Position numbers and translations under genes: made by a program. The notes beneath the pieces were generated by a model. That model saw only the letters and a program-made list of their open reading frames with translations. It was not told the DNA's origin and ran no database searches. A stretch of DNA of 64,000 nt from a virus. The stretch is from the IMG/VR virus record IMGVR_UViG_3300032053_000002, positions 108,752 to 172,751 of that record; one strand, written 5' to 3'. This document shows, piece after piece, positions 1 through 21,452 of this stretch (positions are counted from its first letter, which is position 1; each line of letters begins with the position of its first letter).

Positions 1-332
1 AGTATTTTGGATACGGCTAATGCAACCGCAACCGATCTAGACATTCCGGCTTCGCAATTTATTAAAATATCGTTTACGTCATGTTTATATCTAAGAACGA
101 AATCTACAATACGTTTAGCAAGAAATTCCGAAAAATGAATAAGATCATTCATGTCTACTCGATAAAATGAATTAACGTCACCGTCATAATTTATATCATG
201 AAATTCCAGATACAAAACATCTTTACAAAAAGAAGTCTCAGGCAACCTATAAAATGGAGCTCCCGGAGAAAATATGGAAATGGCGACGAACGGAATTTTA
301 ATTCCATCGATAAATACCTTATCGGTAGCCAT
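1..332 (-). CDS. Partial CDS (runs off the window start); CX5R phosphatase-like protein (dual-specificity/tyrosine phosphatase signature CEAGMSRS)
   Basis: Minus-strand ORF starting at ATG 332 (MATDKVFIDG...), no stop before window edge; contains C-X5-R-S P-loop motif typical of Cys-based phosphatases; consensus promoter immediately upstream (368-396). Confidence 0.45.
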   Translation of the reverse strand, partial: MATDKVFIDGIKIPFVAISIFSPGAPFYRLPETSFCKDVLYLEFHDINYDGDVNSFYRVDMNDLIHFSEFLAKRIVDFVLRYKHDVNDILINCEAGMSRSVAVALAVSKI

Positions 333-367
333 ACGTTTATTTATCGCAACTATTTTATACATAGTAT

Positions 368-396
368 AATATAACCAATTTTTTATAGAAAGTCAA
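368..396 (-). promoter_or_regulatory. sigma70-like promoter, minus strand: TTGACT-N17-TATATT
   Basis: Reverse complement reads TTGACT ttctataaaaaattggt TATATT ahead of ATG at 332. Confidence 0.6.
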
Positions 397-399
397 CCG

Positions 400-585
400 C
401 TACTTTAACAGAAAATTCGCCAGCCTAATTATAAAAATAATTACGAATGCCCAGAATCCTATTCCGAAAGCAGTTCGGTCAAACACCGTCGATTTACCTC
501 GGGAATCAAAGATGATATACAACACCATTAGTCCACCGAATAAAAACAACAAACCAACACCGATATAAATTAATAAGTTTAACAT
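400..585 (-). CDS. small hydrophobic (membrane) protein, 61 aa
   Basis: ORF track; strongly hydrophobic two-helix sequence. Confidence 0.4.
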   Translation of the reverse strand: MLNLLIYIGVGLLFLFGGLMVLYIIFDSRGKSTVFDRTAFGIGFWAFVIIFIIRLANFLLK

Positions 586-596
586 TCCATTTCCTT

Positions 597-896
597 TTAA
601 CTTTTTATGTATGTTTTAGCAACATGCGCGATATCGCGAATTCGTTTAGTATGACCAGAAGTTTCCAATTTTTCAAGACAAACCACAATCTTTTCATAGT
701 CTAATTGCGGATAATAATATTTCATTTTAATCAGATTGACAATAGAAGATTCCACAACTCCGTCGTTATTGTGTTGTAATCCATTTAAATAATTAGCGAG
801 ACCCCGCTCAATTTTAATAGCCGAATCATTTACTTGCGACAATACTTGCGAAAACATTACGCTAATCAATATCACTACTAAAAAAAGTTTTTTCAT
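597..896 (-). CDS. secreted/signal-peptide protein, 99 aa
   Basis: N-terminal MKKLFLVVILISVMFSQVLS signal-like segment; AGGAG-like RBS upstream. Confidence 0.5.
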   Translation of the reverse strand: MKKLFLVVILISVMFSQVLSQVNDSAIKIERGLANYLNGLQHNNDGVVESSIVNLIKMKYYYPQLDYEKIVVCLEKLETSGHTKRIRDIAHVAKTYIKS

Positions 897-984
897 TTTC
901 TCTCTCCTTTTGTTTACATACTATTAAACGAAAAGAAAGAGTAAATGTTGTCACATCCAAGTAAACAATTGTAAAAAATTGTCA

Positions 985-1074
985 TGGCGGAGAGCATAGG
1001 ATTTGAACCTACGCTGCGTTACCGCAGGCCTCGCCTTTCCAGGGCGGCACAATACCTGATTCTGTCAACTCTCC
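985..1074 (-). tRNA. tRNA-Ser (anticodon GGA), type II with long variable arm, CCA encoded
   Basis: Reverse complement GGAGAGT..ACA/TGT D-stem..anticodon loop CTGGAAA..variable hairpin CTGCG/CGCAG..T-arm GTAGG TTCAAAT CCTAT..acceptor GCTCTCC-G-CCA. Confidence 0.8.
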
Positions 1075-1082
1075 ATCTTTCT

Positions 1083-1364
1083 TTACTGATCCAACTTTAA
1101 AAAATTATAAAATTTTTTTAACTCTCGCATAGTCATCACAACCCTTTTTACTCCATATACCACAGAATAAACGGCATCGAGTTCTGGAGTATAAACAAAA
1201 CTCTCGGATTCTTTTCCGGTATCTAATAAATGTTTATCTTTAATCCACACCATTTTTCCGTTAAACGGATATTTTTCAATAAATGTCCAACCATCTTTTC
1301 GTAATCGTCTCGGTGTAATTTTGAGCATCCATAAGTCTCCTTTGTATCGCGTTACGAATTTCAT
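1083..1364 (-). CDS. hypothetical protein, 93 aa
   Basis: ORF between two tRNA genes. Confidence 0.5.
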   Translation of the reverse strand: MKFVTRYKGDLWMLKITPRRLRKDGWTFIEKYPFNGKMVWIKDKHLLDTGKESESFVYTPELDAVYSVVYGVKRVVMTMRELKKFYNFLKLDQ

Positions 1365-1379
1365 TTTTTAAGTTTTTCG

Positions 1380-1466
1380 CGGAGAGCATAGGATTTGAAC
1401 CTACACGACTTTTCAGTCGACCTCGCATTTCGAGTGCGGTACAATACCGGATTCTGTCAACTCTCC
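1380..1466 (-). tRNA. tRNA-Ser (anticodon CGA), type II
   Basis: Reverse complement GGAGAGTTGACAG...anticodon stem CGCA/TGCG loop CTCGAAA...T-arm GTAGG TTCAAAT CCTAT...acceptor GCTCTCC. Confidence 0.8.
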
Positions 1467-1472
1467 ATAATA

Positions 1473-1649
1473 TTAATATTTCCTTTTAGATTTTCTGAAA
1501 GTCTCCAATACGTTCGGATCGGTTGTTGGTGATTTCTTTTCCGCCCACTTTTTCTCTTTATTTTCCGTCCACTTTGTTAATTGTTTATTCACAAAATATA
1601 AAATAAATACGGCGACTAAAACAATCAATCCAATAAATAAAACGTTCAT
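1473..1649 (-). CDS. small membrane protein (~58 aa; start trimmed to internal Met so it does not overlap tRNA)
   Basis: Track ORF 1473..1709 overlaps tRNA-Ser(TGA); internal ATG at 1649 gives MNVLFIGLIVLVAVFILYF... single TM helix plus Lys-rich tail. Confidence 0.4.
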   Translation of the reverse strand: MNVLFIGLIVLVAVFILYFVNKQLTKWTENKEKKWAEKKSPTTDPNVLETFRKSKRKY

Positions 1650-1676
1650 ATGTATTTCCTTTCTATTGGCTTTTCG

Positions 1677-1762
1677 CGGAAGATGAAGGATTTGAACCCT
1701 CGCGTCCAAAGGACGACCTCAGCTTTCAAGGCTGGTGCGATGCCGGACTCCGCCAATCTTCC
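1677..1762 (-). tRNA. tRNA-Ser (anticodon TGA), type II
   Basis: Reverse complement GGAAGAT..anticodon loop CTTGAAA (stem CAGC/GCTG)..T-arm GAGGG TTCAAAT CCTTC..acceptor ATCTTCC perfectly pairs GGAAGAT. Confidence 0.8.
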
Positions 1763-1766
1763 AATA

Positions 1767-2003
1767 CTATTTTTCTTTATCTTCTTTTCTTTTATTAAGG
1801 AATATTTTATTTATCAACGTCCATGCACTTAATCCAATAGAAATTAAAACTCCTAATTCCTTAACTACATCTAATAAATAATAAATGTTTAATTTTTGAA
1901 GTATGTATGTTAATAAAAACGCTCCCGCTGCCGCAGAAACTAAAAATTCTGTTACCGCGTGCCACATCCGTGACTTCCAAAACTTACCTGTTATGTTTTT
2001 CAT
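1767..2003 (-). CDS. small membrane protein, 78 aa
   Basis: ORF track; two hydrophobic segments. Confidence 0.45.
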   Translation of the reverse strand: MKNITGKFWKSRMWHAVTEFLVSAAAGAFLLTYILQKLNIYYLLDVVKELGVLISIGLSAWTLINKIFLNKRKEDKEK

Positions 2004-2039
2004 AACATAAACTCCAATTAGCGGAGAGTATAGGATTTG

Positions 2040-2125
2040 AACCTATGTGCCCAAAGGGCAACCTCGGTTTAGCAAACCGGTACAATACCTGACTCTGCCA
2101 ACTCTCCAGAACGATCTTTATTTCA
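2040..2125 (-). tRNA. tRNA-Ser (anticodon GCT), type II
   Basis: Reverse complement GGAGAGTTGGCAG...anticodon loop TTGCTAA...T-arm ATAGG TTCAAAT CCTAT...acceptor ACTCTCC. Confidence 0.8.
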
Positions 2126-2168
2126 TTTTTATCGCCATGGTGTTTCTCCAAATTTTTATATATAGATA

Positions 2169-2197
2169 AATATACGAAAATAAAATATACAAGTCAA
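2169..2197 (-). promoter_or_regulatory. sigma70-like promoter TTGACT-N17-TATATT, directed toward tRNA-Ser(GCT)
   Basis: Reverse complement TTGACT tgtatattttattttcg TATATT. Confidence 0.6.
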
Positions 2198-2213
2198 GTT
2201 ATTTGTTGAGTAT

Positions 2214-2684
2214 TTATAACTCAAAACTTTCTACTTCTTCTGGCGACAAATCATACACACTAGAAAATAGTGTTTTAAGATTGCTGTGCCAGTCGACTCC
2301 GTATTTCTTAACTATTATATAAAATTCGTTAATATCATGTCTTCTAATCCGATATTCCCATTCGCCAGATTTATCATTTGTTATCGCTAAAACATGCAAT
2401 AACTCGTGCCATAACAGTATCATTCGCTGTTCTTCTGTTATTTTATCCCAAAACTCCCCAGATAATTCTATAACATAATCGCATTCACCAAACACTTTTA
2501 ATAAGTTACTGGCTCTGGTGCATCTTCCGGCCGTTGTTTTGCTTATTGTGGGATAAACTAATAGATACTTTATTCTTGCGTTACCTATTTGAATTAGTTT
2601 ATCTTTGATAACTTCTTCCGCCAAATTTTCCACATCTGGCGACTTAACATACTCTTTTTTCTTAATTTTTGTTGTGTTGGACAT
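2214..2684 (-). CDS. SprT-like zinc metallopeptidase (HExxH: WHELLH)
   Basis: 156 aa; HELLH zinc-binding motif with downstream acidic residues; size and layout typical of SprT/DUF45 family. Confidence 0.5.
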   Translation of the reverse strand: MSNTTKIKKKEYVKSPDVENLAEEVIKDKLIQIGNARIKYLLVYPTISKTTAGRCTRASNLLKVFGECDYVIELSGEFWDKITEEQRMILLWHELLHVLAITNDKSGEWEYRIRRHDINEFYIIVKKYGVDWHSNLKTLFSSVYDLSPEEVESFEL

Positions 2685-2741
2685 GACATACCTCCGTTAA
2701 TATATTACTATAAGTTAAACGAAATTTTTCAAAAAAAGTTC

Positions 2742-4244
2742 CTATTTCGAATCCAAAACATCTCGTACCCGTTTAAGTATAGTCAGTGGAGTAACCGGTT
2801 TTTCAATAAAATTAATATTTTCGTGTAGTATTCCATAATGTACTATTGTATTATCAGTATATCCTGACATATATAATGTTTTAATTTTTGGGTATTTTTT
2901 GATTAGATTTTCTACTAATTCTACTCCATTCATTTTTGGCATAACGACATCAGTTAATACAATGTCGATTGGAACATTAAGTGTTTCCACTTTTTCTAAT
3001 GCGATCACACCATTTGAAGCCATAATTACGGTATATCCAGAATTTTCTAAACGGTCTTTTATAAGATTTCTAACTTCTAGTTCATCTTCTACTAATAATA
3101 CTGTTTCGGTTCCTCTTATATCGTTTTCATTTATTTTATCAACCAAAAAGCGTTTTACGGCAATATCATCAGTTGAAGGAAAATAAATATAAAATGTTGC
3201 TCCGTGCCCAGGTTCACTTTCTGCCCAAATATGTCCATTACTTTGTTTAACAATGCCGTATACCACAGGCAAGCCAAGACCGGTTCCTCTTCCCAATGGT
3301 TTAGTCGTAAAAAATGGTTCAAATAATCGATCCTTTACTTCTTTAGTCATTCCTACGCCAGTATCTGAAATAGAAATCAAAACAAATGAACCTCTTTTAT
3401 CAAATGGTTCGATGGATTCAACGTTTTCAGTTTTTATTACCAATTTTCCCCCATCTGGCATAGCATCAATCGCGTTTATACAAATATTTATTAAAACTGA
3501 TTGAAATTGAACCGTATCTATTTTAATATTTTTAATATCTGGGGATAGATTTAAAGAAAAATCAATGTCTTCTTTTATAAACTGACTTAAAAAATCTTTT
3601 TGTTCGGATAAAAATTGATTTGGGTCAACAGTTTCCATTTTCATCATTTGTTTTTTACTAAATGCTAAAAGTCGTTTTACAAATTTTTCTGCCCGTTCAC
3701 TCGCACGAAAAATTTTTCCAACTTTAACTTGTTCATTTGAATCTGGAACTAATTTATTCATTAGCTCTTCGCTATATCCTTTTATAACGGTTAAAATATT
3801 ATTAAAATCATGTGCGATACCGCCCGCTAATAAACCAACGGCTTCTAATTTAGAAGTATTTTTTAATTGGTCTTCTAAAACAGTTTTTTCATTTTCAAGG
3901 CACGTTATATCTCTAACATAAACAATCCCAAGCGTTTCATTGTCATGATTAAAAAATTTTGCATATACTTCGCATGAAAATGAACTACCATCTTTTTTTC
4001 TATTAATAGTTCTAGTAAAGAATTTTCCTGTTTTTTTACCGATTTCCATTAATTTAGGCAGAGTCATTTTATAATATTCTTCCGAAGTTAAATCATGTAC
4101 ATTTAATATAGATTTAAATTCTTCGCGTGTATATCCGTATAATTCAATGGCAGTTTGATTACAATCTAAAATAGTACCATCTAATTTTTCTAAAAAAATT
4201 GCGTCCGGTGACGTATCAAGTATTAAATCAAAAAATCTTTTCAT
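2742..4244 (-). CDS. hybrid sensor histidine kinase with C-terminal receiver domain (PAS - HisKA - HATPase_c - REC)
   Basis: 500 aa; PAS-like N-term; H-box HDFNNILTVIKGY; G-box ISDTGVGM...GTGLGL; receiver with LLVEDE...D(TDVVMPKMNG) phospho-acceptor Asp. Confidence 0.8.
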   Translation of the reverse strand: MKRFFDLILDTSPDAIFLEKLDGTILDCNQTAIELYGYTREEFKSILNVHDLTSEEYYKMTLPKLMEIGKKTGKFFTRTINRKKDGSSFSCEVYAKFFNHDNETLGIVYVRDITCLENEKTVLEDQLKNTSKLEAVGLLAGGIAHDFNNILTVIKGYSEELMNKLVPDSNEQVKVGKIFRASERAEKFVKRLLAFSKKQMMKMETVDPNQFLSEQKDFLSQFIKEDIDFSLNLSPDIKNIKIDTVQFQSVLINICINAIDAMPDGGKLVIKTENVESIEPFDKRGSFVLISISDTGVGMTKEVKDRLFEPFFTTKPLGRGTGLGLPVVYGIVKQSNGHIWAESEPGHGATFYIYFPSTDDIAVKRFLVDKINENDIRGTETVLLVEDELEVRNLIKDRLENSGYTVIMASNGVIALEKVETLNVPIDIVLTDVVMPKMNGVELVENLIKKYPKIKTLYMSGYTDNTIVHYGILHENINFIEKPVTPLTILKRVRDVLDSK

Positions 4245-4266
4245 TGCCGATCTCCTTCAATAAAAG

Positions 4267-4346
4267 AACCCCGAGCGGGATTTGAACCCGCCTTTTCAGC
4301 TCCATCTACGAATAGAAGTTTAGGAAACTCCCTCGGCTATCGGGGC
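4267..4346 (-). tRNA. tRNA-like element (type-II-like, degenerate D-arm; anticodon unresolved, possibly CCU)
   Basis: Reverse complement has acceptor GCCCCGA/TCGGGGT, U8 A9, perfect T-arm GCGGG TTCAAAT CCCGC and a long variable region, but no canonical D-stem; a hairpin GGAGT/ACTTC with loop TTCCTAA lies too close to the 5' end. Confidence 0.4.
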
Positions 4347-4350
4347 AAAA

Positions 4351-4617
4351 TTATTTTTTCCTCTTTTTTCTGGCCGCTGGCGGTATAGGTGGACGAGAAG
4401 TAGATGGCGGATAATTTTTTCCACCCTTAACAGTTTTGCCTTCGGTCAATAATGGAAAGTCGGGTTTAGAATTTTTCACGACTTCCGATAAAGCATCAAC
4501 CACAACTTGCTCCATTGTTTTTCCAACTTTGTTGGCATACGCTTCCAACTTTTTAAATAAGTCATTATCCAAATCGATTTCCACGTCCACATACTTTTTC
4601 ATTTTTTCTTTTTTCAT
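4351..4617 (-). CDS. hypothetical protein, 88 aa, Lys/Pro-rich C-terminus
   Basis: ORF track. Confidence 0.5.
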   Translation of the reverse strand: MKKEKMKKYVDVEIDLDNDLFKKLEAYANKVGKTMEQVVVDALSEVVKNSKPDFPLLTEGKTVKGGKNYPPSTSRPPIPPAARKKRKK

Positions 4618-4644
4618 AACTCTTTCCTTTATTTAATATAAATA

Positions 4645-5322
4645 TCATTTATTTCCGAAATATTTATTTATTTTATCATTTATTGTTTCCACCATTTTCA
4701 TATTTTCGAATATTATGTCGCGAAACTCTTTTAAGTTTTTCGCCGTTGGAAATTTCACGGTTTTCTTCTGGCGAAAATAATACTCATTTTCTCTGGTAAT
4801 ATTTAAAACGCCTATTTTCTGAAATGGAATGTGAAAGCGCTCAATCATTTGCGGTTTATCATCCAATAAATAATCACCGTTAAATAATTGTTTCTCTTTG
4901 GTAAAAATCAAATCATCATATACATTATCAACATTTTCATTCAACCATTCTATTGTCGCAATTCTCGCCGCCGTTGTTTCCTGATGCGTAGAAATGACTA
5001 TTCGACAACCTGGTATTTTGTTTTTTAATATGACGATATGATTTTTCCACTCATCCACCGATATTAACGGCTTCGCATTTCTGAAAATGTCGTAACTGGT
5101 TTTCGGGTTTTCAAAGAATACCGTGTTGCATAACTCTTCCGCCTTCTTGGCTACTTTTGGATCGAACATTCCATCAAATCCCCAACCCGTTGATTTGCCG
5201 CGAGGCAATTCATACTTTTTAAGTTCCGGATGAACTTTATAAAGCACTACCATCGCATAACCGATGAAATTTCTTAAAACGCCGTCGCAATCATGATGTA
5301 TAGTTATTATTTTATTTTCCAT
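4645..5322 (-). CDS. HAD-superfamily 5'(3')-deoxyribonucleotidase-like protein
   Basis: 225 aa; N-terminal HAD motif I ITIHHDCDGVL (DxDx[TV]); this family is common in large phages. Confidence 0.5.
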   Translation of the reverse strand: MENKIITIHHDCDGVLRNFIGYAMVVLYKVHPELKKYELPRGKSTGWGFDGMFDPKVAKKAEELCNTVFFENPKTSYDIFRNAKPLISVDEWKNHIVILKNKIPGCRIVISTHQETTAARIATIEWLNENVDNVYDDLIFTKEKQLFNGDYLLDDKPQMIERFHIPFQKIGVLNITRENEYYFRQKKTVKFPTAKNLKEFRDIIFENMKMVETINDKINKYFGNK

Positions 5323-5323
5323 T

Positions 5324-5596
5324 TTACTTTTCTTCCAGTTTAATGTCGTGATATATTTTGTTAATTATATTTAATATATGTTTTGATATAGTTATTTCCA
5401 TATCCGCAACTATAAGCCTTCTTAACTTGCCAATGGATGAATAAATGGCTCGAATATCATTTTCAGTATAAAAGTTTACTGAATTTGACGAACGCAAAAA
5501 CGTCCACCCGGGTGCATTACTCAACAGCCAATCAATTTTATTTAAAATAATATTTTTATCAGCGAAATCAAATATTCTATAATAAGTAAAACTCAT
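5324..5596 (-). CDS. hypothetical protein, 90 aa
   Basis: ORF track, overlaps start/stop with neighbours (ATGA-type coupling). Confidence 0.5.
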   Translation of the reverse strand: MSFTYYRIFDFADKNIILNKIDWLLSNAPGWTFLRSSNSVNFYTENDIRAIYSSIGKLRRLIVADMEITISKHILNIINKIYHDIKLEEK

Positions 5597-6009
5597 GTAG
5601 CTATCACTTTCGAAACAAGTTCTAGTGCTTCTCGCAACGATAACAGTTCTCCTTTTTCATTTATCATATTTTCTCGTGCATACTTTACCGCGTGAATTTT
5701 TCCATGTAATTTATAAATGTGAAAAATGTGTAATTTATGTATTTCATCTTCGGGCATTTCTTTTATCGTTACCCCCTTTTCGGTCATATACTTTTCTATC
5801 AATTTGTGTTTTTTATAAATAAAATTCGCACGCGCCATATCTTCAATAGAAAAACGAGAATTTTTTTCTATTTCATCAACTATTTTTAGAATGTCTAACA
5901 AATCTGGCGGAAATAACCACGAATCGTCGTCTTCATAATTTTTTTTAATTAGTACGGTAACCGTACGCAATTTTTTTAAAATTTCTGTTTTCTTTTCGGC
6001 TTCTTCCAT
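5593..6009 (-). CDS. hypothetical protein, 138 aa
   Basis: ORF track. Confidence 0.5.
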   Translation of the reverse strand: MEEAEKKTEILKKLRTVTVLIKKNYEDDDSWLFPPDLLDILKIVDEIEKNSRFSIEDMARANFIYKKHKLIEKYMTEKGVTIKEMPEDEIHKLHIFHIYKLHGKIHAVKYARENMINEKGELLSLREALELVSKVIAT

Positions 6010-6020
6010 TTTCTAACAAC

Positions 6021-6353
6021 TTAATTTTCGTTCAATATATCAAGTCTTTCTGGCGCAGTAACATTCCAAATAGATTTGCTCTCTAAATAAATACTTTTTC
6101 GCCACTCTTTAAGCATAGTGATAGCCGTCTTATAATCTTCATCTATAAGAACCCATAAAATTCGTCTGGCTTCAAGTCCTCGATAATTATCAAATCTCGC
6201 AAATATTTGCGATAAATCATCTTCCACCAGTTTAGAATTTCCGGATGATATTTCCTGTATCCACGTTGTTATGTCGTGAATAAGCTTTGGATTTTGCCTA
6301 CTCCGTTTTGTTCGAAACGTCATTTTTGCTGCGTCCATATTTTTTACTCCCAA
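6021..6353 (-). CDS. hypothetical protein, ~100-110 aa (true start probably at an internal Met)
   Basis: ORF track; 5' end overlaps next gene so start likely downstream. Confidence 0.45.
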   Translation of the reverse strand: MGVKNMDAAKMTFRTKRSRQNPKLIHDITTWIQEISSGNSKLVEDDLSQIFARFDNYRGLEARRILWVLIDEDYKTAITMLKEWRKSIYLESKSIWNVTAPERLDILNEN

Positions 6354-6579
6354 TTATTTTTTTATGTTGTTTATTTCTAATGTCTTCTATGTCGATTTCT
6401 TGCTTCATTTCAACTTCAATTTGAAGTTTCATTCTAAATGGATTTGTCATACTCCATGTTCTTTTGACCGAAATAATATTATATTTTTTCTTTAAATTAT
6501 TCAATACTTTATTCACATTAAAAAAATAAGTATTAAATGATATTTCAAAGGTGTATCTTTTCTGAATTATTTTATCCAT
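6298..6579 (-). CDS. hypothetical basic protein, 93 aa
   Basis: ORF track; consensus promoter just upstream (6585-6613). Confidence 0.45.
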   Translation of the reverse strand: MDKIIQKRYTFEISFNTYFFNVNKVLNNLKKKYNIISVKRTWSMTNPFRMKLQIEVEMKQEIDIEDIRNKQHKKIIGSKKYGRSKNDVSNKTE

Positions 6580-6584
6580 AATAC

Positions 6585-6613
6585 AATATACTAAAATGAA
6601 CGTTAAAAGTCAA
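6585..6613 (-). promoter_or_regulatory. sigma70-like promoter TTGACT-N17-TATATT
   Basis: Reverse complement TTGACT tttaacgttcattttag TATATT. Confidence 0.55.
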
Positions 6614-6621
6614 GTAATATT

Positions 6622-7011
6622 TTATTCGTCAGATTCTTCGGATATGTTATCAATAACGTCTAAATCAAAATTATCTATTAAAAAATGCCACGAAGGCGTT
6701 CTGTCTTCCAGTGGAACGGTAGATAGTATTTTACCAACATCGAGACGACCAACTTTAAACGCAGTATACTCTTTATCACTATCAATATATTCTATCAGCT
6801 CCGGCACATTCGCGCGGTTGCATATATATTCCAACAGAAGTGAAAATATATCAAGCTCCCACAAGAAAGTATCCAGTCCCTCAACCTGTTCCTTAACAAA
6901 ATCTGAAAATTCCTTCGCGTCTATTGCCGATCCTTCCATCCATTCAATGAATTCATCTAATTGGTTATCATCAAGGTTAAACAATTCTTTTATTAAGTCA
7001 TCCATAATCAT
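6622..7011 (-). CDS. highly acidic hypothetical protein, 129 aa
   Basis: ORF track; Asp/Glu-rich throughout. Confidence 0.5.
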   Translation of the reverse strand: MIMDDLIKELFNLDDNQLDEFIEWMEGSAIDAKEFSDFVKEQVEGLDTFLWELDIFSLLLEYICNRANVPELIEYIDSDKEYTAFKVGRLDVGKILSTVPLEDRTPSWHFLIDNFDLDVIDNISEESDE

Positions 7012-7307
7012 GCCGCATCTCCTTTTTGGATTTTTGTTACTATTCCCAGTTTGTCAAATTGTTTTTTTAAATTATTTATATAATCATTGTCGCCGTCGGC
7101 GATAATGGTTTCTCCGGTATAGTGTGCTTCAGCGGCTCGTTTCAGCGCGTCATCAAACTCCATATCGCAGACTTCCACCAGCGCGTCCATGATATATTCC
7201 GCTTCATTGGTATCATCGTTCACCAGAACCAACACGGCGAAAGACCTATCAATGTTTATATCGTGTTTTATTCCTTCATCATTTAAAATACTCGTCAACT
7301 CTTTCAT
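7008..7307 (-). CDS. ClpS-like ATP-dependent Clp protease adaptor
   Basis: 99 aa; VLVLVNDDTNEAEYIMDALVEVC...HYTGE pattern resembles the ClpS core (VxLxNDDxxxxxFVxxxL...H..G). Confidence 0.45.
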   Translation of the reverse strand: MKELTSILNDEGIKHDINIDRSFAVLVLVNDDTNEAEYIMDALVEVCDMEFDDALKRAAEAHYTGETIIADGDNDYINNLKKQFDKLGIVTKIQKGDAA

Positions 7308-7384
7308 TTTTTATTTACTCCTTAATTTTTGTAACATTCTAATAAAACTCTCGTATATTAATATAAATAGAAGAGAACGATGAT

Positions 7385-7519
7385 ATGAAACACTTTCTAA
7401 TTTATATAGTATGTTTTTTAATTTCATTTCCATTTGCGTATATAATTGTCGCGGATATAATCGATATTTATAAACGATTTCACTCGTATCTGTATATAAT
7501 TATATCCAAAATATTTTAG
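7385..7519 (+). CDS. small hydrophobic peptide, 44 aa (plus strand)
   Basis: ATG 7385, in-frame TAG 7517-7519; MKHFLIYIVCFLISFPFAYIIVADI...; sits in a divergent intergenic region. Confidence 0.25.
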   Translation: MKHFLIYIVCFLISFPFAYIIVADIIDIYKRFHSYLYIIISKIF

Positions 7520-7528
7520 GAGAATATT

Positions 7529-7846
7529 ATGCATTCGCTAGTACCTATTGCGTTTTTTGCAATGATTGTTCTAATAGTCAAATTTATTTCTGACAACAAG
7601 ATACGAAAAAAAATCATAGAGGCCGGAAATCTTAACCAGAGTTTAAAATACCTCTGGGAAAAGTCATACGCACGTAAACCGTTACAATCACTTAAAGTTG
7701 GAGCAATTGCTGTCGCGATTGGACTAATCTTTTTAGTCGGCTCAATTAGCAAATTTGAAGAGTTGGTTATCGCCGGTGCGTCTCTAGTTTCAGTTGGAAT
7801 CATATACATCATATATTATTTTATTGAACATAAAAAAGAAAATTAA
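7529..7846 (+). CDS. membrane protein, 105 aa (one of very few plus-strand genes)
   Basis: AGGAG RBS 8 nt upstream of ATG; two or three TM helices. Confidence 0.55.
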   Translation: MHSLVPIAFFAMIVLIVKFISDNKIRKKIIEAGNLNQSLKYLWEKSYARKPLQSLKVGAIAVAIGLIFLVGSISKFEELVIAGASLVSVGIIYIIYYFIEHKKEN

Positions 7847-8058
7847 AAACCGATTTCTTTAGATAGTTGCGGAGTCCATCCACCAAGTTCTCGAAATCGA
7901 TATGATATTAGGTTCTGGATTTCAACCTCTTCTTCCAATTTTTCGCGGAAATTAGTTTCGTCGATGAAGTTCATCCCCGGACTCGGCAAAAATCTTTGCC
8001 AAATCGCCAATCGAAATTTATCCGCATTCATGACTTGCTCTTTTGTTGGATAATTCAT
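7843..8058 (-). CDS. hypothetical protein, 71 aa
   Basis: ORF track. Confidence 0.45.
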   Translation of the reverse strand: MNYPTKEQVMNADKFRLAIWQRFLPSPGMNFIDETNFREKLEEEVEIQNLISYRFRELGGWTPQLSKEIGF

Positions 8059-8609
8059 TTTAAATCCTCTTTTTTTATATTATGTTTTTTTATTATTTTA
8101 TTTATTCCTTCAATCGCACTAGCACGAAATACATCGTTTTCCTGTAATTCAGTTAACGCGCTAGATATATAAAAACTTTCGTAATCCGTATCTGTTCTTT
8201 CATCAATTTTACTTAGTAATTTCGACAACGCATTGATAATAAATTCTTTTTTATATTTTATTATAACGGTTATCCATTCCGGAATAGCCATATCATATTT
8301 TTTAAAATGTTCTTTCGCCATCGGCACGTTCTCGATATATAATATATCATTGTTACCCACAACTCTAAAATATATGTTTTCAATTCTGTGTAATAGTAAT
8401 ATAGAATCCGCTACAATTTTTTCTGAATTTCGTAACATTTCAGGAATAGATTTATATTTCGAAAATGGATACGGAACTTTATCCATTTTTACGGCCAAAT
8501 CAAATCTTCCCGTCCCACCCAAAAAGCAATCTTCACTATCCGTAATTTCTACTATTCCCGGAATAGCCGTGCACATTTGCGGTTGGTCTTTAAATCTAAA
8601 CGCTCTCAT
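8055..8609 (-). CDS. paralog-family protein, long form (N-terminal M[KR]A[YF][KR]F...IEI[ST]D motif)
   Basis: 184 aa; N-terminus similar to 15381..15992 and the frameshifted 13046..13562 gene; C-terminal INKIIKKH resembles the LNxIYKKY motif. Confidence 0.55.
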   Translation of the reverse strand: MRAFRFKDQPQMCTAIPGIVEITDSEDCFLGGTGRFDLAVKMDKVPYPFSKYKSIPEMLRNSEKIVADSILLLHRIENIYFRVVGNNDILYIENVPMAKEHFKKYDMAIPEWITVIIKYKKEFIINALSKLLSKIDERTDTDYESFYISSALTELQENDVFRASAIEGINKIIKKHNIKKEDLK

Positions 8610-8730
8610 GTTTGTTTAGAAAACCAATTCTTCTGATTTTTCGTTTTTATTGGGAATCGAATTCAGCATTTCCAATTCTTCTTCCAAAGTTAAATAAAAC
8701 TTGTAATCGTCATTAAACATTTTTATATCC

Positions 8731-9159
8731 TCATTTTTTGTATTTTTTATAAATCGTATTCAATTGTTTAACATCTTCTTCTGTTAGTTTTGTAGATAAA
8801 AACCGAGTTGTACTGATTCTTCCGGTGCCGTCTATTTGAACGAATTTGTCTTTCAACATTTTCACATATTTTTTGTCGGCTCTAAACATCGAATCTCCCA
8901 TTCCACCCGTTGTTTTAGTTAATACTTCATACAAACGATACACCCTCAGCCATATATAAAACTTGTCGCAAATGTATTTAAGTCTTTCCAGTTGATTGCG
9001 AAATGTGTAATTAGTGCTTAACATCTGATTTAACAATATAATGTTAATTCTATTGTCAGGACCGACTTCAATGTCGGTAATTTTTATTTCGTCGACATAA
9101 TAACTATACCTTTGCAGATTTGACGTTGGCGAATTCCTAATTAATGTGGTTTTTTTCAT
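8731..9159 (-). CDS. paralog-family protein (CDKFYIWLRV core, C-terminal LNTIYKKYKK)
   Basis: 142 aa; shared motifs with at least 12 other ORFs in the window. Confidence 0.6.
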   Translation of the reverse strand: MKKTTLIRNSPTSNLQRYSYYVDEIKITDIEVGPDNRINIILLNQMLSTNYTFRNQLERLKYICDKFYIWLRVYRLYEVLTKTTGGMGDSMFRADKKYVKMLKDKFVQIDGTGRISTTRFLSTKLTEEDVKQLNTIYKKYKK

Positions 9160-9164
9160 TCTAT

Positions 9165-9617
9165 CTATCTATACTTTTTATAAATTTCATTTAACTTAAA
9201 AATATCGGCTTCTTCTATACTATTGACTCTAGAAAGAAACCAGGTCATTAACTTTCCACTGTTCATGTTGGCAATACCATCTTTTAATTCTTTTACATAA
9301 TTCAACGTTCCAACTTTAGCATTTTTAGAAATTAAAAGTTCGTATAAAGTATGCAATCGTAGCCATATATAAAACTTATCACACGCATACAAAACTTCTT
9401 CCGTAATTTTTTGTTTATCTCCGCCAAAATGAGAGATCGGAACCGTATAATCTATATTAAATATTTGATTTAGTAATGAAATCCTAATGGCCGGCCCCAG
9501 CGACTTTTCACCCCTATCAAATACTTCGATTTCTGTAATGCAATTCCCGCGTGAATGGTACTCATACACGGCGGATTTTGAATCGATATTAATTTCAACT
9601 AATTTAGATGTTTTCAT
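9165..9617 (-). CDS. paralog-family protein (CDKFYIWLRL, C-terminal LNEIYKKYR)
   Basis: 150 aa. Confidence 0.6.
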   Translation of the reverse strand: MKTSKLVEINIDSKSAVYEYHSRGNCITEIEVFDRGEKSLGPAIRISLLNQIFNIDYTVPISHFGGDKQKITEEVLYACDKFYIWLRLHTLYELLISKNAKVGTLNYVKELKDGIANMNSGKLMTWFLSRVNSIEEADIFKLNEIYKKYR

Positions 9618-9643
9618 TTTTTATCTTATCTTTTAATATAACT

Positions 9644-9705
9644 AATATAATCATTCCCGAACTACCAGTCAAGAATTATTTTTAAATATTGTGATTTTTT
9701 TCACA
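9644..9705 (-). promoter_or_regulatory. sigma70-like promoter TTGACT-N17-TATATT with upstream perfect TGTGA-N6-TCACA palindrome (9690-9705)
   Basis: Reverse complement TTGACT ggtagttcgggaatgat TATATT; palindrome TGTGATTTTTTTCACA. Confidence 0.6.
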
Positions 9706-9720
9706 TACCCGAATCCTTAC

Positions 9721-10236
9721 CTAATATGGGTTCGCACCTTTATACTTTTTATAAATTTCATTTAACTTAAAAATATCGGTTTCAGTTATACGCGCCGCCG
9801 TAATAGTCAGTCTTGTGTTTTTATCTTTAATGAATCGGCTTTTCAATTCATTTACATAACGCAAATCGTTCGCAAATGAAGACAAATCCACACTTACTCC
9901 GATAGTTATTAAATCGGCGCCAACATAATATCTTTCTATCATCTTGTAAAGTTTGTCTAATCGTCGCCAGATATAATATCTATTACACGTTATCAAGCAA
10001 TTATCCTGATTTGAAACCGCAAAAGTATAGTCGTGTAATTCCAAACGTTCATTTAATTCAGGAATCAATATTTCGTAGCAACTCATTGTTTCTCGGATGT
10101 CAACGCGAAAAAGTTGATATTTACCCATACGATATAGATATACTCGCCAGGTACCGAACAACGCTCCAGTTATTATCTGATAAGATTTGTCAGTATATAA
10201 TAAACTTCTATTGCCGATTTTTATTATACTTCGCAT
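9721..10236 (-). CDS. paralog-family protein (CNRYYIWRRL, C-terminal LNEIYKKYKG)
   Basis: 171 aa. Confidence 0.6.
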   Translation of the reverse strand: MRSIIKIGNRSLLYTDKSYQIITGALFGTWRVYLYRMGKYQLFRVDIRETMSCYEILIPELNERLELHDYTFAVSNQDNCLITCNRYYIWRRLDKLYKMIERYYVGADLITIGVSVDLSSFANDLRYVNELKSRFIKDKNTRLTITAARITETDIFKLNEIYKKYKGANPY

Positions 10237-10720
10237 ATATTCCGTTTAATTTTTTAATAGTTGATTTGCATATTTTTGGAGTGTGTCCTGCAAAATTAGT
10301 ATAAATTGCGCCCTTAGAAATATGAGAAAACCCCACTTTTAGTTTGGAAACATATCTTTTGTCTTTCAAATCAAAATTTTTCGCGGAAGAATTTATTAGC
10401 TCAAAAAGATTCTGTAGCCTTTTCCAAAAATAAAATCTATTACATATTCTTAAACACTCCGCAAGACACTCCGACGGTATTGCAAAAAAATCATTGTTGG
10501 GATCAGAAGAAAGCGTCGGCACGTATATGGTATAGTCAGGTATCGATAAATATTTTTGGAGTTCCATTATTTGTATTTTATTAAACGTATGACAAATATC
10601 AACTCTCGAAATAAGTACATCGTTTACTTTATAATGATATACGTACCAGAGATCATCCAGGGTATCAAACACGGTAGTAATATAGTCCAATTTTCTATTA
10701 TTAATTTCGGAGTTTTGCAT
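10208..10720 (-). CDS. paralog-family protein (CNRFYFWKRL, C-terminal LNGIYAKYNK)
   Basis: 170 aa; overlaps neighbours by a few codons (operon-like). Confidence 0.6.
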   Translation of the reverse strand: MQNSEINNRKLDYITTVFDTLDDLWYVYHYKVNDVLISRVDICHTFNKIQIMELQKYLSIPDYTIYVPTLSSDPNNDFFAIPSECLAECLRICNRFYFWKRLQNLFELINSSAKNFDLKDKRYVSKLKVGFSHISKGAIYTNFAGHTPKICKSTIKKLNGIYAKYNKNRQ

Positions 10721-11195
10721 ATATTTTATTCAGTTTTATAATGTCTTCTTTAGTTAAAATCGGCCCGGTCCGGGCTTGAAAATCGGTGAATAATATCCTA
10801 TTTTTATCCTGTATGGCGAATTTATGCATTAAAGATACGACATATTGCTGCATTTTCGCCATTTCATCCGAACCATCTTTACTATAAACGGTTGCGAGAT
10901 AAAGGTTATTTAACCTGTACCATATATAAAATCTATTGCATATTTTTAAGTATTCGTCCATTGATTGTGCGACTTTTTTTACTCGTATACAATAATCTGG
11001 TCTGTCATAATATTCATTTAAGAAAATTATTTTTATCAATCCCCCAGGATCTAAAGAAATGTAAACATTAGTTATGGCGACATCATCTACTTTATATTCA
11101 TATACGTCCCACTGGGTAATCGTGGCGACCTTTCCCGTAGAATCTTTCACTATTTCACTACGACCACCAACTTTTGTTAAAGTTTTATTTTCCAT
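10701..11195 (-). CDS. paralog-family protein (CNRFYIWYRL, C-terminal LNKIYAKLRN)
   Basis: 164 aa. Confidence 0.6.
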   Translation of the reverse strand: MENKTLTKVGGRSEIVKDSTGKVATITQWDVYEYKVDDVAITNVYISLDPGGLIKIIFLNEYYDRPDYCIRVKKVAQSMDEYLKICNRFYIWYRLNNLYLATVYSKDGSDEMAKMQQYVVSLMHKFAIQDKNRILFTDFQARTGPILTKEDIIKLNKIYAKLRN

Positions 11196-11697
11196 ACGGC
11201 GGTCTATATATTTTATAAAGTTTATTTAAAAGTTTAACTTCGTTGGGGACTAGTCCCAATTTTGAGTGGTGTTCTATGTGGTACGGAATTTTATTCAATA
11301 TTCCACCGCGCGGACATTTCACAAAAAGGTGTTTTTTTAAATTTTCAACATACCGGAGGTTCTCTTCGTGTATTCCAAGTTCGTGTCTGGTTAGTTCATT
11401 AACTACACTATAATTAGACATCATAACAGACAATAATTGTAGTCTATACCAAATATAAAATACATCACACGCGACGTTTAAATTACCGGTAATAGTTTGA
11501 TGTGGTCTCGGAGTTATTTTGATACTATAACTTTGGTCGCCTATAATATCGTTTAATATCTGGATTCGAATTACCCAACTATTGTTGTGATTTTGGCTCA
11601 AATAAACACGAGTTAGAAAGTTGCCGTTAGTATCGTAATTGTACTCGAATAAATCTTCGTCTCGCTCGTGTCTAATATAAACTAATTTTTTATCCAT
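11185..11697 (-). CDS. paralog-family protein (CDVFYIWYRL, C-terminal LNKLYKIYRP)
   Basis: 170 aa. Confidence 0.6.
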   Translation of the reverse strand: MDKKLVYIRHERDEDLFEYNYDTNGNFLTRVYLSQNHNNSWVIRIQILNDIIGDQSYSIKITPRPHQTITGNLNVACDVFYIWYRLQLLSVMMSNYSVVNELTRHELGIHEENLRYVENLKKHLFVKCPRGGILNKIPYHIEHHSKLGLVPNEVKLLNKLYKIYRPPYGK

Positions 11698-11774
11698 TTT
11701 TTCCCGCGGGTTTCAATTATAAAATAAAATCTTGCTTGCCGTGCAAATCTTGCCCGGACACTTTTTGCAACCAA

Positions 11775-11890
11775 TATATTTCGCAACCATATTTATTAAC
11801 TTCTCGCTCGCAACCATATTTATTAACTTCTCGCTCGCAACCATATTTATTAACTTCTCGCACGCAACCACATTCATTAATCTTTCGTTA
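11775..11890. repeat. 27-bp direct tandem repeat, 3 near-perfect + 1 degenerate copy (cgcaaccatatttattaacttctcgct)
   Basis: Visible by eye; the track ORF 11713..11895 (MVASEKLIN x3) is produced by this repeat. Confidence 0.8.
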
Positions 11891-12044
11891 CGCAACGAAC
11901 ACTTTTCTTTAATCTAATCTCAATATCTATTAATTTTTCGCATAGTGGGCACTTAAATGGAAACCAATTCCAATTCATCATCGTATTTTTTTCACCGCAG
12001 TGAGGACACGTAAAATCGGCCGTTATCTGTTTAATTTTAATCAT
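11877..12044 (-). CDS. small zinc-ribbon protein, 55 aa (CPHCG...CPLCE)
   Basis: ATG at 12044, TAA at 11877-11879; two CxxC pairs; below the 60-aa track cutoff. Confidence 0.3.
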   Translation of the reverse strand: MIKIKQITADFTCPHCGEKNTMMNWNWFPFKCPLCEKLIDIEIRLKKSVRCVTKD

Positions 12045-12207: not shown

Positions 12208-12825
12208 TTAACCCTTGCTAAAAAACTCTTTCATTAAATAACTTATTATTAATTTACTCTTATTCTTAATATGCAATTTAAGTTCGGAGTGTACTTCTAA
12301 ACCAATCCTAATACGCAAACATTCAACTGGCGACAAACATTTCTTTGCTAAAGTCATTATATAATTACGTGCCGCTTCTTCAGTATGATTCTCATTTTCT
12401 TTTATACAAAAATGATGCCCTACCTCATGCGCAAGAGTATATATATCAAAATCTTTTATCAATTCAATACATGGATATTCTGGTATTGTTTTTATGGCAA
12501 ACCCTTTCGGAAATCCAAACGTCTTTTCAATATCTCTGATTTGATTATATAATTCTTTTCCTTTATCATTCAAATAAACATATCTCCCACATGCGGCTTG
12601 AAGCATCGTTTCTTTATCGGCTAAAGGCGATATATTATTTAGTTTATATATATCGTCATAAAGTTTTATTGGGATGCCTTCCTGTTCGCAAATCCCTAAC
12701 AGCTTGCTTCTGAATTTCTCTAATACCTTTTTTTCTTCTTTCCTGTTTAACTCAAAGAAAGAAATTTTCATTGAAAATATTAAACACGCCCATGTAATTA
12801 TGGCGCAAATAATAATAATTATCAT
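12208..12825 (-). CDS. membrane-anchored ImmA/IrrE-like zinc metallopeptidase (HEVGHH)
   Basis: 205 aa; N-terminal TM helix; HExxH motif AHEVGHHF followed by conserved Glu-containing region. Confidence 0.45.
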   Translation of the reverse strand: MIIIIICAIITWACLIFSMKISFFELNRKEEKKVLEKFRSKLLGICEQEGIPIKLYDDIYKLNNISPLADKETMLQAACGRYVYLNDKGKELYNQIRDIEKTFGFPKGFAIKTIPEYPCIELIKDFDIYTLAHEVGHHFCIKENENHTEEAARNYIMTLAKKCLSPVECLRIRIGLEVHSELKLHIKNKSKLIISYLMKEFFSKG

Positions 12826-13064
12826 AATATTTTCTCCGGAAACAAAATTTTGCGTCGTCTTTCGAGTTCCTTTTTGGTATCAGACGGAATCAGTTGCACT
12901 TTCATTACTCTGTCGCCGTTTCTCCAGCATGCTTTCCACGATTTATTAGCAGATTTTGCGTGTTCTTTTACGGCCTGTCGCCGAGTGAGCCACGTTTTTG
13001 GGTAGAATCCATCTTTACCGATGATTGCCCACATAATGATTTTTTTCATGTTGTGTCTTTCCAT
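12822..13064 (-). CDS. hypothetical basic protein, 80 aa
   Basis: ORF track. Confidence 0.45.
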   Translation of the reverse strand: MERHNMKKIIMWAIIGKDGFYPKTWLTRRQAVKEHAKSANKSWKACWRNGDRVMKVQLIPSDTKKELERRRKILFPEKIL

Positions 13065-13562
13065 ATTTTATTTAATTCCTTAATATCATTTAGAGATAGT
13101 TTTCCGTTATTCATAAAGTTTTTATATATATTTATAGTATCAGCTGAGCGAATCGTTTCAAATAACTTTGCAAATTTATCGTAAATACGATTGAACTTTT
13201 CAATGTGTTCTATATTAGATATATGAAATTCGACTGCAGAATGATTTGTCTTTGTTTGATATGCTATTTCATCTTTAATTTCTTTAATGTCCGAATATAC
13301 AAATATATAATTTGTGTTCCGATTTCCATAAAAAAATGTTTTTTCGATTCGGTATAGGTCATTTGTATCATTTACGAATACTAAATGCGGATGATGATAT
13401 ATTTCGCGTATTAACGAAAAATGCTGAAATACATCGGGAAGTTTTGTTTTTTTTATATCCGATAGGTAAATATACGGGTTCATCGCATTCTGTAACTTCT
13501 AATATTCCGGGAATGGTGTGTATATACTTATACTTTTTTGTAAATTCAAATGTATTTAACAT
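13046..13562 (-). pseudogene. paralog-family gene interrupted by a frameshift in an A8 homopolymer (track ORFs 13368..13562 and 13046..13483 are its two halves)
   Basis: N-terminal half MLNTFEF...IPGILEVTECDEP matches the N-termini of 8055 and 15381; downstream half continues the family sequence and ends with LNDIKELNKIWKDTT; the frame change falls at the tttttttt/aaaaaaaa run near 13448-13455. Confidence 0.45.
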
Positions 13563-13826: not shown

Positions 13827-14031
13827 CTGTTATTTTTTGTTGTAAATTACTATAATAGTAACGGCCGTTATTTCAAATATAATACTTAAAGTCAACTGTT
13901 ATTTGTTATAAACTATTATAATGATGACGGTTACCTGTTATACTGCTAATAGGTTATCGTTAGGGTATTGTATTCTCTATTTATTATTAGTGTATTATTA
14001 TTTTAAATTTTAATTTAGGGGAGAAAATATT

Positions 14032-14727: not shown

Positions 14728-14737
14728 ATTTGGAATT

Positions 14738-14776
14738 AAAGATCCCCGCTTTTTTTCACGCGGGGATTTTTGTTTT
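14738..14776. terminator. rho-independent terminator, probably bidirectional (ATCCCCGC-loop-GCGGGGAT with flanking T/A runs)
   Basis: 8-bp GC-rich inverted repeat followed by TTTTTG on plus strand and preceded by AAAG. Confidence 0.65.
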
Positions 14777-14884
14777 CTTGGACAGATTTTCCGAAAAATT
14801 TTTAACTCCTTGACTTGAATTGTCGCCAGATGTGCCTCGTAAAATTCGTTTTTTATTAATAACTGCAAAATATGTTTATTGATA

Positions 14885-16416: not shown

Positions 16417-16421
16417 ATTCC

Positions 16422-18674: not shown

Positions 18675-18704
18675 TCTATCTTTCCTTCTTTAATTGTATA
18701 CCTA

Positions 18705-21451: not shown

Positions 21452-21452
21452 A

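Follow-up and report, generated by a model that had tools for sequence, protein, structure and literature searches.

Huge phages of one clade share a tRNA cluster complete for the serine isoacceptors

Results

Four tRNA-Ser genes and five small ORFs

The stretch of DNA analysed here, referred to as the window, comprises 64,000 nt of the IMG/VR virus record IMGVR_UViG_3300032053_000002 (positions 108,752 to 172,751 of that record), and the element in question is a cluster of four tRNA-Ser genes, with small open reading frames (ORFs) between and after them, that lies close to the window start. With a second locus, L049 (13.1 kb), which extends ~10 kb past the window start, ~74 kb of DNA was read for this phage, whose genome measures no less than 293 kb. 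ARAGORN was run over the whole window, and the Rfam family RF00005 (gathering score 29) served as a second model. ARAGORN reported five tRNAs in total, namely four tRNA-Ser and one tRNA-His(GUG). A sequence-only reading of the window had proposed four type-II tRNA-Ser genes with the anticodons GGA, CGA, TGA and GCT, and this was confirmed: ARAGORN placed the four genes at the same coordinates and gave the isotype Ser for each, none of the four had the look of a pseudogene, and the Rfam scores of 43.5 to 52.8 bits lie well above the gathering score (E-values of 1.7e-8 to 6.3e-6 in the whole-window search). The features of the cluster, read along the minus strand, are as follows.

2169-2197, minus strand: promoter TTGACT-N17-TATATT, predicted to drive the operon; one of 12 exact copies
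2118-2138, minus strand: MAIKMK*, a six-codon remnant of a 119-aa ORF; its GGAG Shine-Dalgarno site is kept at 2146-2149
2021-2107, minus strand: tRNA-Ser(GCU), codons AGU and AGC; ARAGORN, Rfam 52.8 bits; CCA not encoded
1767-2003, minus strand: ORF78, two transmembrane-like segments; GGAG 8 nt 5′ of the ATG, within the tRNA 3′ trailer
1676-1762, minus strand: tRNA-Ser(UGA), codon UCA plus wobble; ARAGORN, Rfam 50.6 bits; CCA not encoded
1473-1649, minus strand: ORF58, single-pass membrane peptide (Kyte-Doolittle 19-residue score 2.88, residues 2-20); AAGGA Shine-Dalgarno site
1379-1466, minus strand: tRNA-Ser(CGA), codon UCG only; ARAGORN, Rfam 43.5 bits; CCA not encoded
1083-1328, minus strand: ORF81, soluble basic protein with no transmembrane segment; AAAGGAG before the ATG at 1328
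985-1074, minus strand: tRNA-Ser(GGA), codons UCC and UCU; ARAGORN, Rfam 44.3 bits; the sole CCA-encoding gene of the four
597-896, minus strand: ORF99, N-terminal hydrophobic segment, signal-peptide-like; AAGGAG Shine-Dalgarno site
400-585, minus strand: ORF61, two transmembrane-like segments, final gene of the unit; identical in the strains compared
368-396, minus strand: next copy of the promoter motif, at the downstream end of the unit; exact-motif search

The anticodons GGA, CGA, UGA and GCU make up the standard bacterial serine set and cover six codons, which bears out the proposal that the four tRNAs together decode every Ser codon. Each of the four genes yields a 7/5 cloverleaf (7-bp acceptor stem, 5-bp T stem) with a variable region of 17-18 nt containing a stem of 4-5 bp. 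G73, G1-C72, G2-C71, A3-U70 and C11-G24, which we take to be the identity set of E. coli seryl-tRNA synthetase (SerRS), are present throughout. Column identity among the four averages 79%; the acceptor stem and both the D and T arms are common to them, and the differences fall mostly in the anticodon stem and variable arm. In strain L005, tRNA-Ser(GGA) carries paired changes on both strands of the variable-arm stem. The four genes span 1.1 kb on the coding strand, and the cluster is Ser-only, unlike the usual mixed-isotype clusters of phages.

Conservation of the set across the clade

Relatives were recovered by scanning IMG/VR, GTDB genomes and JGI metagenomes for a 23-mer from the shared T arm and acceptor, and then by look-ups of homologues of the phosphatase encoded next to the cluster. 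This gave six other lineages, L022 and L036 from the 23-mer and L053 (from a 309,378-bp contig), L054, L055 and L056 from the phosphatase, of which ~45 homologues matched with E below 1e-30. All four Ser isoacceptors are present in the same slot in every one of the six, and hence in seven of seven lineages when the window is counted. tRNA-Ser(GCU) is first in the slot of all six relatives, and the order of the other three varies. In the window, the slot is bordered by two genes.

2214-2684, minus strand: phage metallopeptidase, upstream border of the tRNA slot (Pfam PF18894, E = 8.6e-25)
1-362, minus strand: N-terminal part of a DUSP-like cysteine phosphatase with a C-EAGMS-R motif, running off the window start

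The gene order in the six relatives is NT5C, hybrid kinase, metallopeptidase, a variable slot of 2-6 kb, phosphatase and Metallophos, followed, where the fetched DNA reaches, by NADAR (not in L054), RNaseH-like and receiver-domain genes; for L053-L056 this order was taken from Pfam annotation. The window phage also has NADAR. Syntenic orthologues in L022 and L036 share 40-56% protein identity with the window phage. Among them, the metallopeptidase orthologues stand 5′ of the slot (49-56% identity), with a PhageMetallopep gene in the same position in L053-L056, and the phosphatase orthologues directly follow the last tRNA-Ser (43-46% identity).

Conservation between lineages does not extend to the interleaved ORFs. 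Some relatives have tRNAs that adjoin without an intervening ORF (L054 9478-9655 is an example), and within the population of the window phage both the presence of the 119-aa ORF (ORF119) and the alleles of ORF58 vary. Since the tRNAs are kept while these ORFs turn over, the ORFs are best regarded as exchangeable cargo. Matches to the 23-mer were mostly bacterial tRNA-Ser(GCU) genes or unrelated phage arrays, and the latter hold 7-21 genes of mixed isotypes with only Ser(GCU) and Ser(UGA). A literature search for a Ser-complete phage tRNA set found no precedent. One further candidate, L011, in which Ser and Trp tRNAs occur among apparent homing-endonuclease ORFs (read from translations), was judged unrelated. 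Derivation of a host from the shared 23-mer was rejected: the contig L034 has a GC content of 52%, and its tRNA-Ser(GCU), identical in L012 and L017, is 73% identical to that of the phage.

A tRNA-Cys(GCA) gene lies upstream of the Ser set in all six relatives, and no tRNA-Cys was found in the window or L049. In four of the six it carries U73 and a long variable arm, giving a length of 87-91 nt (L022:5435-5521, L053:6459-6549, L054:6374-6460, L056:5858-5946), and L056 pairs the long-arm copy with a normal 75-nt tRNA-Cys, side by side. These long-arm genes are similar to the selC* tRNA-Cys (Mukai et al., PMC5389517), but are drawn with a 7/5 structure.

The slot or its flank in the relatives also holds NAD-related genes (PnuC-like fragments, NAD synthase) and a gene of the CTP_transf_like nucleotidyltransferase family (L022:5709-6726; L053:7442-7888; L054:7495-8796; L055:5589-5819 and 12564-13184; L056:8517-8735), and the L056 slot region a homologue of ribosomal protein L31. 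In several lineages a small ORF with two transmembrane segments follows tRNA-Ser(GCU); it is PnuC-like in L022 and L054 and the unrelated ORF78 in the window.

A shared tRNA body and the turnover of its genes

The 29 tRNA-Ser genes of the window, L022, L036 and L053-L056 were aligned. Stem pairing is kept at every position but 27:43, two positions having one or two exceptions, and GC-to-AU or other double, compensatory changes are seen at many stem positions; such a pattern indicates that the genes are under selection as tRNAs. The anticodon loops are canonical across the clade and G73 is found in 26 of the 29. At 27:43 a C.A mismatch is present in 26 of 29 genes regardless of anticodon; after it come a 3-nt linker and a variable arm with a short stem. 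In the bacterial tRNA-Ser genes compared, which are not those of known hosts, the whole anticodon stem is paired and the variable arm follows it directly. A non-Watson-Crick 27:43 pair was also seen in an unrelated, phage-like array, L043.

For 20 of the 29 genes the best match in another genome has the same anticodon, and the four-member set is therefore ancestral; the remaining nine look like cases of paralogue conversion or replacement. The GGA and CGA tRNAs of the window are each other's closest relatives (83-84% identity). Its tRNA-Ser(GCU) reaches 91% identity to the same isoacceptor in relatives (L056) and its tRNA-Ser(UGA) 83% identity to that of L036. The tRNA-Ser(UGA) of L056 has a GCU-type body, and in L022 (7926-8017) and L054 (9809-9898) a foreign or divergent tRNA-Ser(UGA) with U73 replaces the usual one. 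These two have one nt between the acceptor and D stems and an anticodon stem of 5-6 bp, are not among the Rfam matches at gathering score, and may be allo-tRNA-like species. The set thus stays complete through gene turnover and reordering.

Serine codon usage

Ser accounts for 6.0% of the 17,313 codons of the window and for 4.4-6.3% in the relatives. All six Ser codons are used, with UCU, AGU and UCA as the main ones in these AT-rich genomes (29-35% GC). UCG makes up 3-16% of Ser codons, and in L055 it stands at 3% of Ser codons and ~0.16% of all codons. The UCG-only reader tRNA-Ser(CGA) is kept in seven of seven lineages despite this rarity, which argues against compensation for codon bias. 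A strong mismatch in Ser codon usage, offered by the sequence-only reading as one reason for the set, is thus unsupported from the phage side.

Promoter and transcription unit

Exact copies of TTGACT-N17-TATATT number 12 in the window against 0.03 expected. All are on the minus strand (starting at 368, 2169, 6585, 9644, 13798, 18705, 20194, 22700, 23256, 24049, 25535 and 35211) and all lie between listed ORFs, as judged from the ORF-list coordinates. An upstream AAAATA-type element is common to the copies, and the motif represents a phage promoter class. A generic sigma-70 scan of the window remained at chance level (23 sites found, 21.8 expected), and only the exact motif is informative. The interval from 396 to 2169 has no copy, also when one mismatch is tolerated; with copies at both ends and none within, the four tRNAs and five ORFs would form one unit of ~1.8 kb. 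The promoter that had been noted upstream of tRNA-Ser(GCU) therefore stands, but a role dedicated to the tRNA does not. In the sister strains L002 (6210-6569) and L006 an intact 119-aa ORF is situated between the promoter and tRNA-Ser(GCU), from which it follows that the promoter serves the operon. In the window a precise deletion between AAAAATGAAA direct repeats has removed this ORF, with the junction within the repeat.

Six of the promoter copies cluster at 18-26 kb, within a GC-richer and promoter-dense island (window 14000-26000, GC 0.38-0.42 compared with ~0.33 elsewhere) that also holds tRNA-His(GUG). In both L049 and L054 a copy is also located upstream of the Rnl1 ligase gene. The exact motif was found, too, ~55-160 nt upstream of tRNA-Ser(GCU) in nine bacterial-looking contigs whose tRNA-Ser(GCU) carries the phage 23-mer (L015, L017, L023, L029, L031, L034, L038, L040, L041). 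Since this tRNA is identical where compared among them, together they probably provide a single independent case of a strong sigma-70 promoter, and they are no evidence of a host link.

Small ORFs between and after the tRNAs

Every small ORF is preceded by a Shine-Dalgarno site. The ATG of each of the three inter-tRNA ORFs lies 14-50 nt past the 3′ end of the preceding tRNA, and the stop codon is followed by the next tRNA after 4-8 nt; the spacing is similarly tight in the relatives. A small ORF does separate each tRNA from the next, as had been proposed, and the description of most of them as membrane peptides fits two of the three (ORF78 and ORF58); ORF81 has no transmembrane segment. A longer frame of ORF81 exists (ORF93, 1364-1083, 93 aa), but the shorter one, with its AAAGGAG site, is the more likely, and metagenome gene calls start at 1328 (81 aa). 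Strain differences are synonymous only in ORF78, mostly synonymous in ORF81 and limited to a single synonymous change in ORF99, which supports these three as real genes. ORF58 has a second allele (L051:190-366, L052:701-877) with 79% protein identity, whereas the other ORFs compared differ by 0-3 nt each. Both alleles keep the transmembrane segment and the C-terminal KSKRKY, and ORF58 appears from this comparison to be a local hotspot of diversification or recombination. Searches of the small ORFs against Pfam, PHROGs, PADLOC and NCBIfam returned nothing usable, and blastp against L022, L036, L047 and L048 gave no homologues.

The phage genome and neighbouring genes

The assignment of the DNA to a phage held up on several grounds: the PhageMetallopep gene, matches to PHROGs, a T4 Rnl1-type ligase, almost all long ORFs on one strand and relatives on contigs of 293-309 kb. 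The window has a GC content of ~33-35%, and nearly all of its long ORFs are on the minus strand. Recognisable genes include those for PhageMetallopep, a hybrid histidine kinase, an NT5C nucleotidase and an AAA+ ATPase, together with a sugar-modification block. The last is found at 36000-64000 and consists of genes for carbamoyltransferase, DegT-type aminotransferase, B12-binding radical SAM protein, glycosyltransferases and methyltransferases, a long series directed at the modification of sugars or nucleotide sugars. As a further ground for the assignment to a phage, a 750-aa protein is distantly similar (32-34% identity) to proteins from a Microcystis phage and from an uncultured phage of 484 kb. 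Megablast of positions 1-12000 against GenBank phages gave no match, and a scan of IMG/VR with the metallopeptidase no relative. The window is thus part of a huge phage known from metagenomes only. Further genes of this phage are listed below.

23754-23828, minus strand: tRNA-His(GUG), ordinary type-I; ARAGORN; ~220 nt downstream of one promoter copy
2742-4244, minus strand: hybrid histidine kinase (PAS-HisKA-HATPase-receiver)
L049:7097-7456: stand-alone receiver protein
L049:7711-7795, ~4.8 kb past the window start: tRNA-Leu; counterparts at L054:14657-14741, L056:16143-16227 and L053:15200-15284
L049:12528-13093 (locus end): Rnl1 ligase, PF09511, ~10 kb downstream of the array; the DNA ends within the gene

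The full phosphatase is P0001 (L001/L049:2608-3093), and an identical protein is encoded on a 292,723-bp contig. An alignment-based AlphaFold2 model reached a predicted local distance difference test score (pLDDT) of 95.8, compared with 37 for a single-sequence model. The best PDB matches of the model were DUSP16/8/10/22 at a TM-score of ~0.5, a generic dual-specificity fold. In the distant IMG/VR phage L048 (1747-2088) a 31%-identical phosphatase is encoded between tRNA-Ser(GCU) and tRNA-Ser(GGA); remoter homologues on large, non-phage-like contigs are not adjacent to tRNAs. An action of the phosphatase on tRNA was considered and set aside, being unsupported beyond the conserved adjacency in phages, given the generic DUSP fold and no RNA-related match.

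In L053 (16751-19617), L054 (17374-20250) and L056 (17706-20495) the Rnl1 gene opens a cassette with an HD phosphohydrolase and an AAA_33 kinase, 10-16 kb from the slot; in the window phage the ligase alone is visible before the fetched DNA ends. The tRNA-Leu follows the receiver-domain gene in the window phage, L053, L054 and L056, with the anticodon AAG in three and GAG in one; to our knowledge a Leu anticodon with A34 is unusual in bacteria. Apart from Ser, the ~74 kb read holds only tRNA-His (window) and this one tRNA-Leu (L049). Wherever their fetched DNA reaches these positions, the relatives also have the hybrid kinase and the stand-alone receiver, and such a phage-borne two-component system is unusual.

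Discussion

The explanation that we favour for a set complete for one amino acid and kept in all seven lineages examined, and to which roughly an even chance is given, is that an ancestral, conserved operon makes serine decoding by the phage independent of the host's tRNA-Ser, probably as insurance against loss of the whole isotype. From the layout, host sigma-70 RNA polymerase would start at the promoter at 2197-2169 and make one precursor of ~1.8 kb with the order GCU, ORF78, UGA, ORF58, CGA, ORF81, GGA, ORF99 and ORF61. Host RNase P and RNase Z-type 3′-end enzymes would then excise the tRNAs, and in doing so would split the transcript into short mRNAs whose 5′ untranslated regions are the tRNA 3′ trailers with their Shine-Dalgarno sites. 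The three tRNAs lacking an encoded CCA would be completed by the host CCA-adding enzyme and all four charged by host SerRS, after which the six Ser codons could be decoded independently of the host tRNA-Ser pool. The interleaved ORFs would ride the operon as exchangeable cargo, outside its conserved function.

The selective pressure, on this account, would be the loss of tRNA-Ser as a class, either through host toxins that read the long variable arm or through decay of host tRNA during infection. Completeness for this one isotype seems to be what selection acts on, codon usage giving no reason for it; a class-wide loss of tRNA-Ser in infected cells is the simplest cause and probably the main pressure, and the matching of codon bias a less likely one. 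Activities of the kind envisaged have been described. MenT3 has a marked preference for tRNA-Ser, exerted via the variable arm (PMC11541572), and an activity of this type, by reading a shared variable arm, would affect all Ser isoacceptors. Overexpression of VapC52 lowered the levels of the GGA, CGA and UGA tRNAs for Ser, and those with GGA and CGA were cleaved in vitro (PMC13273310). In other systems phage tRNAs are reported to rescue infection from tRNA-targeting defences (PMC10264068, PMC11555353, PMC11464382), and resistance to host factors that target tRNA, which the sequence-only reading had suggested, is plausible here as well. The Rnl1 gene, which heads an Rnl1-HD-kinase cassette in relatives, together with NADAR and the NAD-salvage genes of the slot, gives a neighbourhood that fits a counter-defence region.

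Several points weigh against this interpretation. The anticodon loops are canonical, and an escape from anticodon nucleases by loop substitutions, as described for T5 tRNAs, is not visible. Any toxin recognising tRNA-Ser by its variable arm would be expected to hit the tRNA-Ser of the phage too, unless features of the clade protect it; candidates for such protection are the C27.A43 mismatch (26 of 29) and the 3-nt linker with its short variable-arm stem. Co-transcription and processing are inferences from the layout. The RNA-repair cassette, at a distance of 10-16 kb, could have another function. Finally, the ~220 kb beyond the DNA read may hold further tRNAs or a SerRS, which would make the Ser set less special; if full genomes hold a large general tRNA bank, the set becomes ordinary huge-phage biology.

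Compensation in codon supply, by which the phage would make good a shortage of those host Ser tRNAs that an AT-rich genome needs, is the classical explanation for phage tRNAs and retains a small but real chance of being correct here. The phages are indeed AT-rich (29-35% GC), three of the four tRNAs read their main codons UCU, AGU and UCA, and one bacterial contig sharing the tRNA-Ser(GCU) 23-mer has a GC content of 52%. However, Ser is not enriched (4.4-6.3% of codons), and the UCG-only tRNA-Ser(CGA), which is kept in all seven lineages even where UCG falls to 3% of Ser codons (L055), is not one that an AT-rich phage would require to make up for a GC-richer host. An AT bias should moreover bear on all codon families, yet in the ~74 kb no amino acid besides Ser is served by more than a single tRNA. 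An unselected, chance remnant of a larger mixed cluster is very improbable: although mixed arrays of 7-21 genes with Ser(GCU) and Ser(UGA) are common among phage contigs carrying the 23-mer, those retrieved typically hold two Ser isoacceptors only, and seven of seven lineages, in which about half of the protein residues differ, keep exactly four Ser anticodons despite reordering and replacement. The view that the main role of the tRNAs is to punctuate RNA processing or to act as stabilisers for the expression of the small ORFs, with decoding secondary, draws on the regular, tight layout (4-8 nt from stop codon to tRNA, Shine-Dalgarno site in the 3′ trailer) that is shared with the relatives. 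It is quite unlikely to be correct, in that the ORFs turn over while the anticodon set stays, some relatives have side-by-side tRNAs with no intervening ORF (L054 9478-9655), and four Ser anticodons, canonical loops, G73 and SerRS identity elements would not be required for such a role, yet are under selection.

Two further explanations turn on the distinctive body of these tRNAs. In one, it is the phage that would destroy or inactivate the tRNA-Ser of the host, or type-II tRNAs generally, so as to shut off host protein synthesis, and it would bring a resistant set as replacement. The shared body (C27.A43 in 26 of 29, 3-nt linker, short variable-arm stem), as compared with the bacterial tRNA-Ser examined, and the conserved completeness of the set would suit such an offensive, as would the nature of the accompanying tRNAs, a tRNA-Leu with its long variable arm and the tRNA-Cys of relatives, long-armed in four of six. 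Against it, no candidate for a tRNA nuclease or toxin was found among ten array-adjacent proteins scanned, the adjacent phosphatase has the fold of generic DUSPs and no match related to RNA, a tRNA-His of the ordinary type I is present in the window, and a non-Watson-Crick 27:43 pair occurs in the unrelated L043 array as well; we regard this explanation, like punctuation, as quite unlikely. The other, broader proposal, that phages contest the whole isotype, is unlikely rather than negligible. Here host tRNA-Ser or type-II tRNAs would be removed by a variable-arm-reading enzyme of host or phage and replaced by a set with a modified body, in which C27.A43 and the 3-nt linker with its short arm would escape the enzyme while charging by SerRS is kept. 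The U73 tRNA-Cys(GCA) of sister phages would then be another tRNA under protection, or else serve for recoding or as a decoy.

The insurance against isotype loss that we favour can be set against several known systems. The tRNA regions of large lytic phages (T4, T5 and the jumbo or 'huge' phages) are alike in being clustered on the coding strand with small ORFs of unknown function interspersed, and in their apparent co-transcription and processing by host enzymes; mixed examples were also met in this work (L008, L009, L025, L032). Such regions mix isotypes and usually have one or two Ser tRNAs, whereas here every Ser isoacceptor is present, and across the whole clade. Phage tRNA clusters themselves are known; what is new is a cluster complete for one isotype, conserved in a clade and maintained through turnover. 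In tRNA punctuation, as in mitochondria or the bacterial tufB operon, tRNAs similarly abut ORFs, and excision would define the mRNA ends; in the phages, by contrast, the tRNAs are conserved and the ORFs variable, and processing is deduced from the layout. The T4 Rnl1/Pnkp repair system has its likeness in the Rnl1-family ligase of L049, ~10 kb off, followed in relatives by an HD protein and a P-loop kinase. It differs in that end healing would be of the HD and AAA_33 type rather than by Pnkp, with the cassette 10-16 kb away and outside the tRNA unit.

Phage tRNAs have lately been recast from helpers against codon bias to tools of counter-defence, and the closest functional parallels lie there. 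T5 tRNA-Tyr is reported to act against the retron PtuAB and T5 tRNA-Lys against PARIS, and phage tRNAs to evade anticodon nucleases, the phage supplying the tRNA that the host would lose (PMC11555353, PMC11464382, PMC10264068). The context is similar here, with RNA-repair and other counter-defence-type genes nearby. The proven cases concern single tRNA species targeted at the anticodon loop, with changes in the phage loop, whereas here a whole isotype with canonical loops is involved. A clade-wide complete isotype points to a different pressure, in which every tRNA for one amino acid is lost. Nucleotidyltransferase toxins of the MenT3/AbiEii type and VapC provide a documented route to loss of tRNA-Ser and are a candidate selective pressure; they are cellular toxins, characterised in Mycobacterium, and not part of this locus (PMC11541572, PMC13273310). 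As recognisers of the variable arm of the MenT3 type exist, the locus yields a testable prediction on the interplay of toxins and phages, and the 29 natural tRNA-Ser variants with a non-Watson-Crick 27:43 pair could serve to separate recognition by SerRS from recognition by such toxins.

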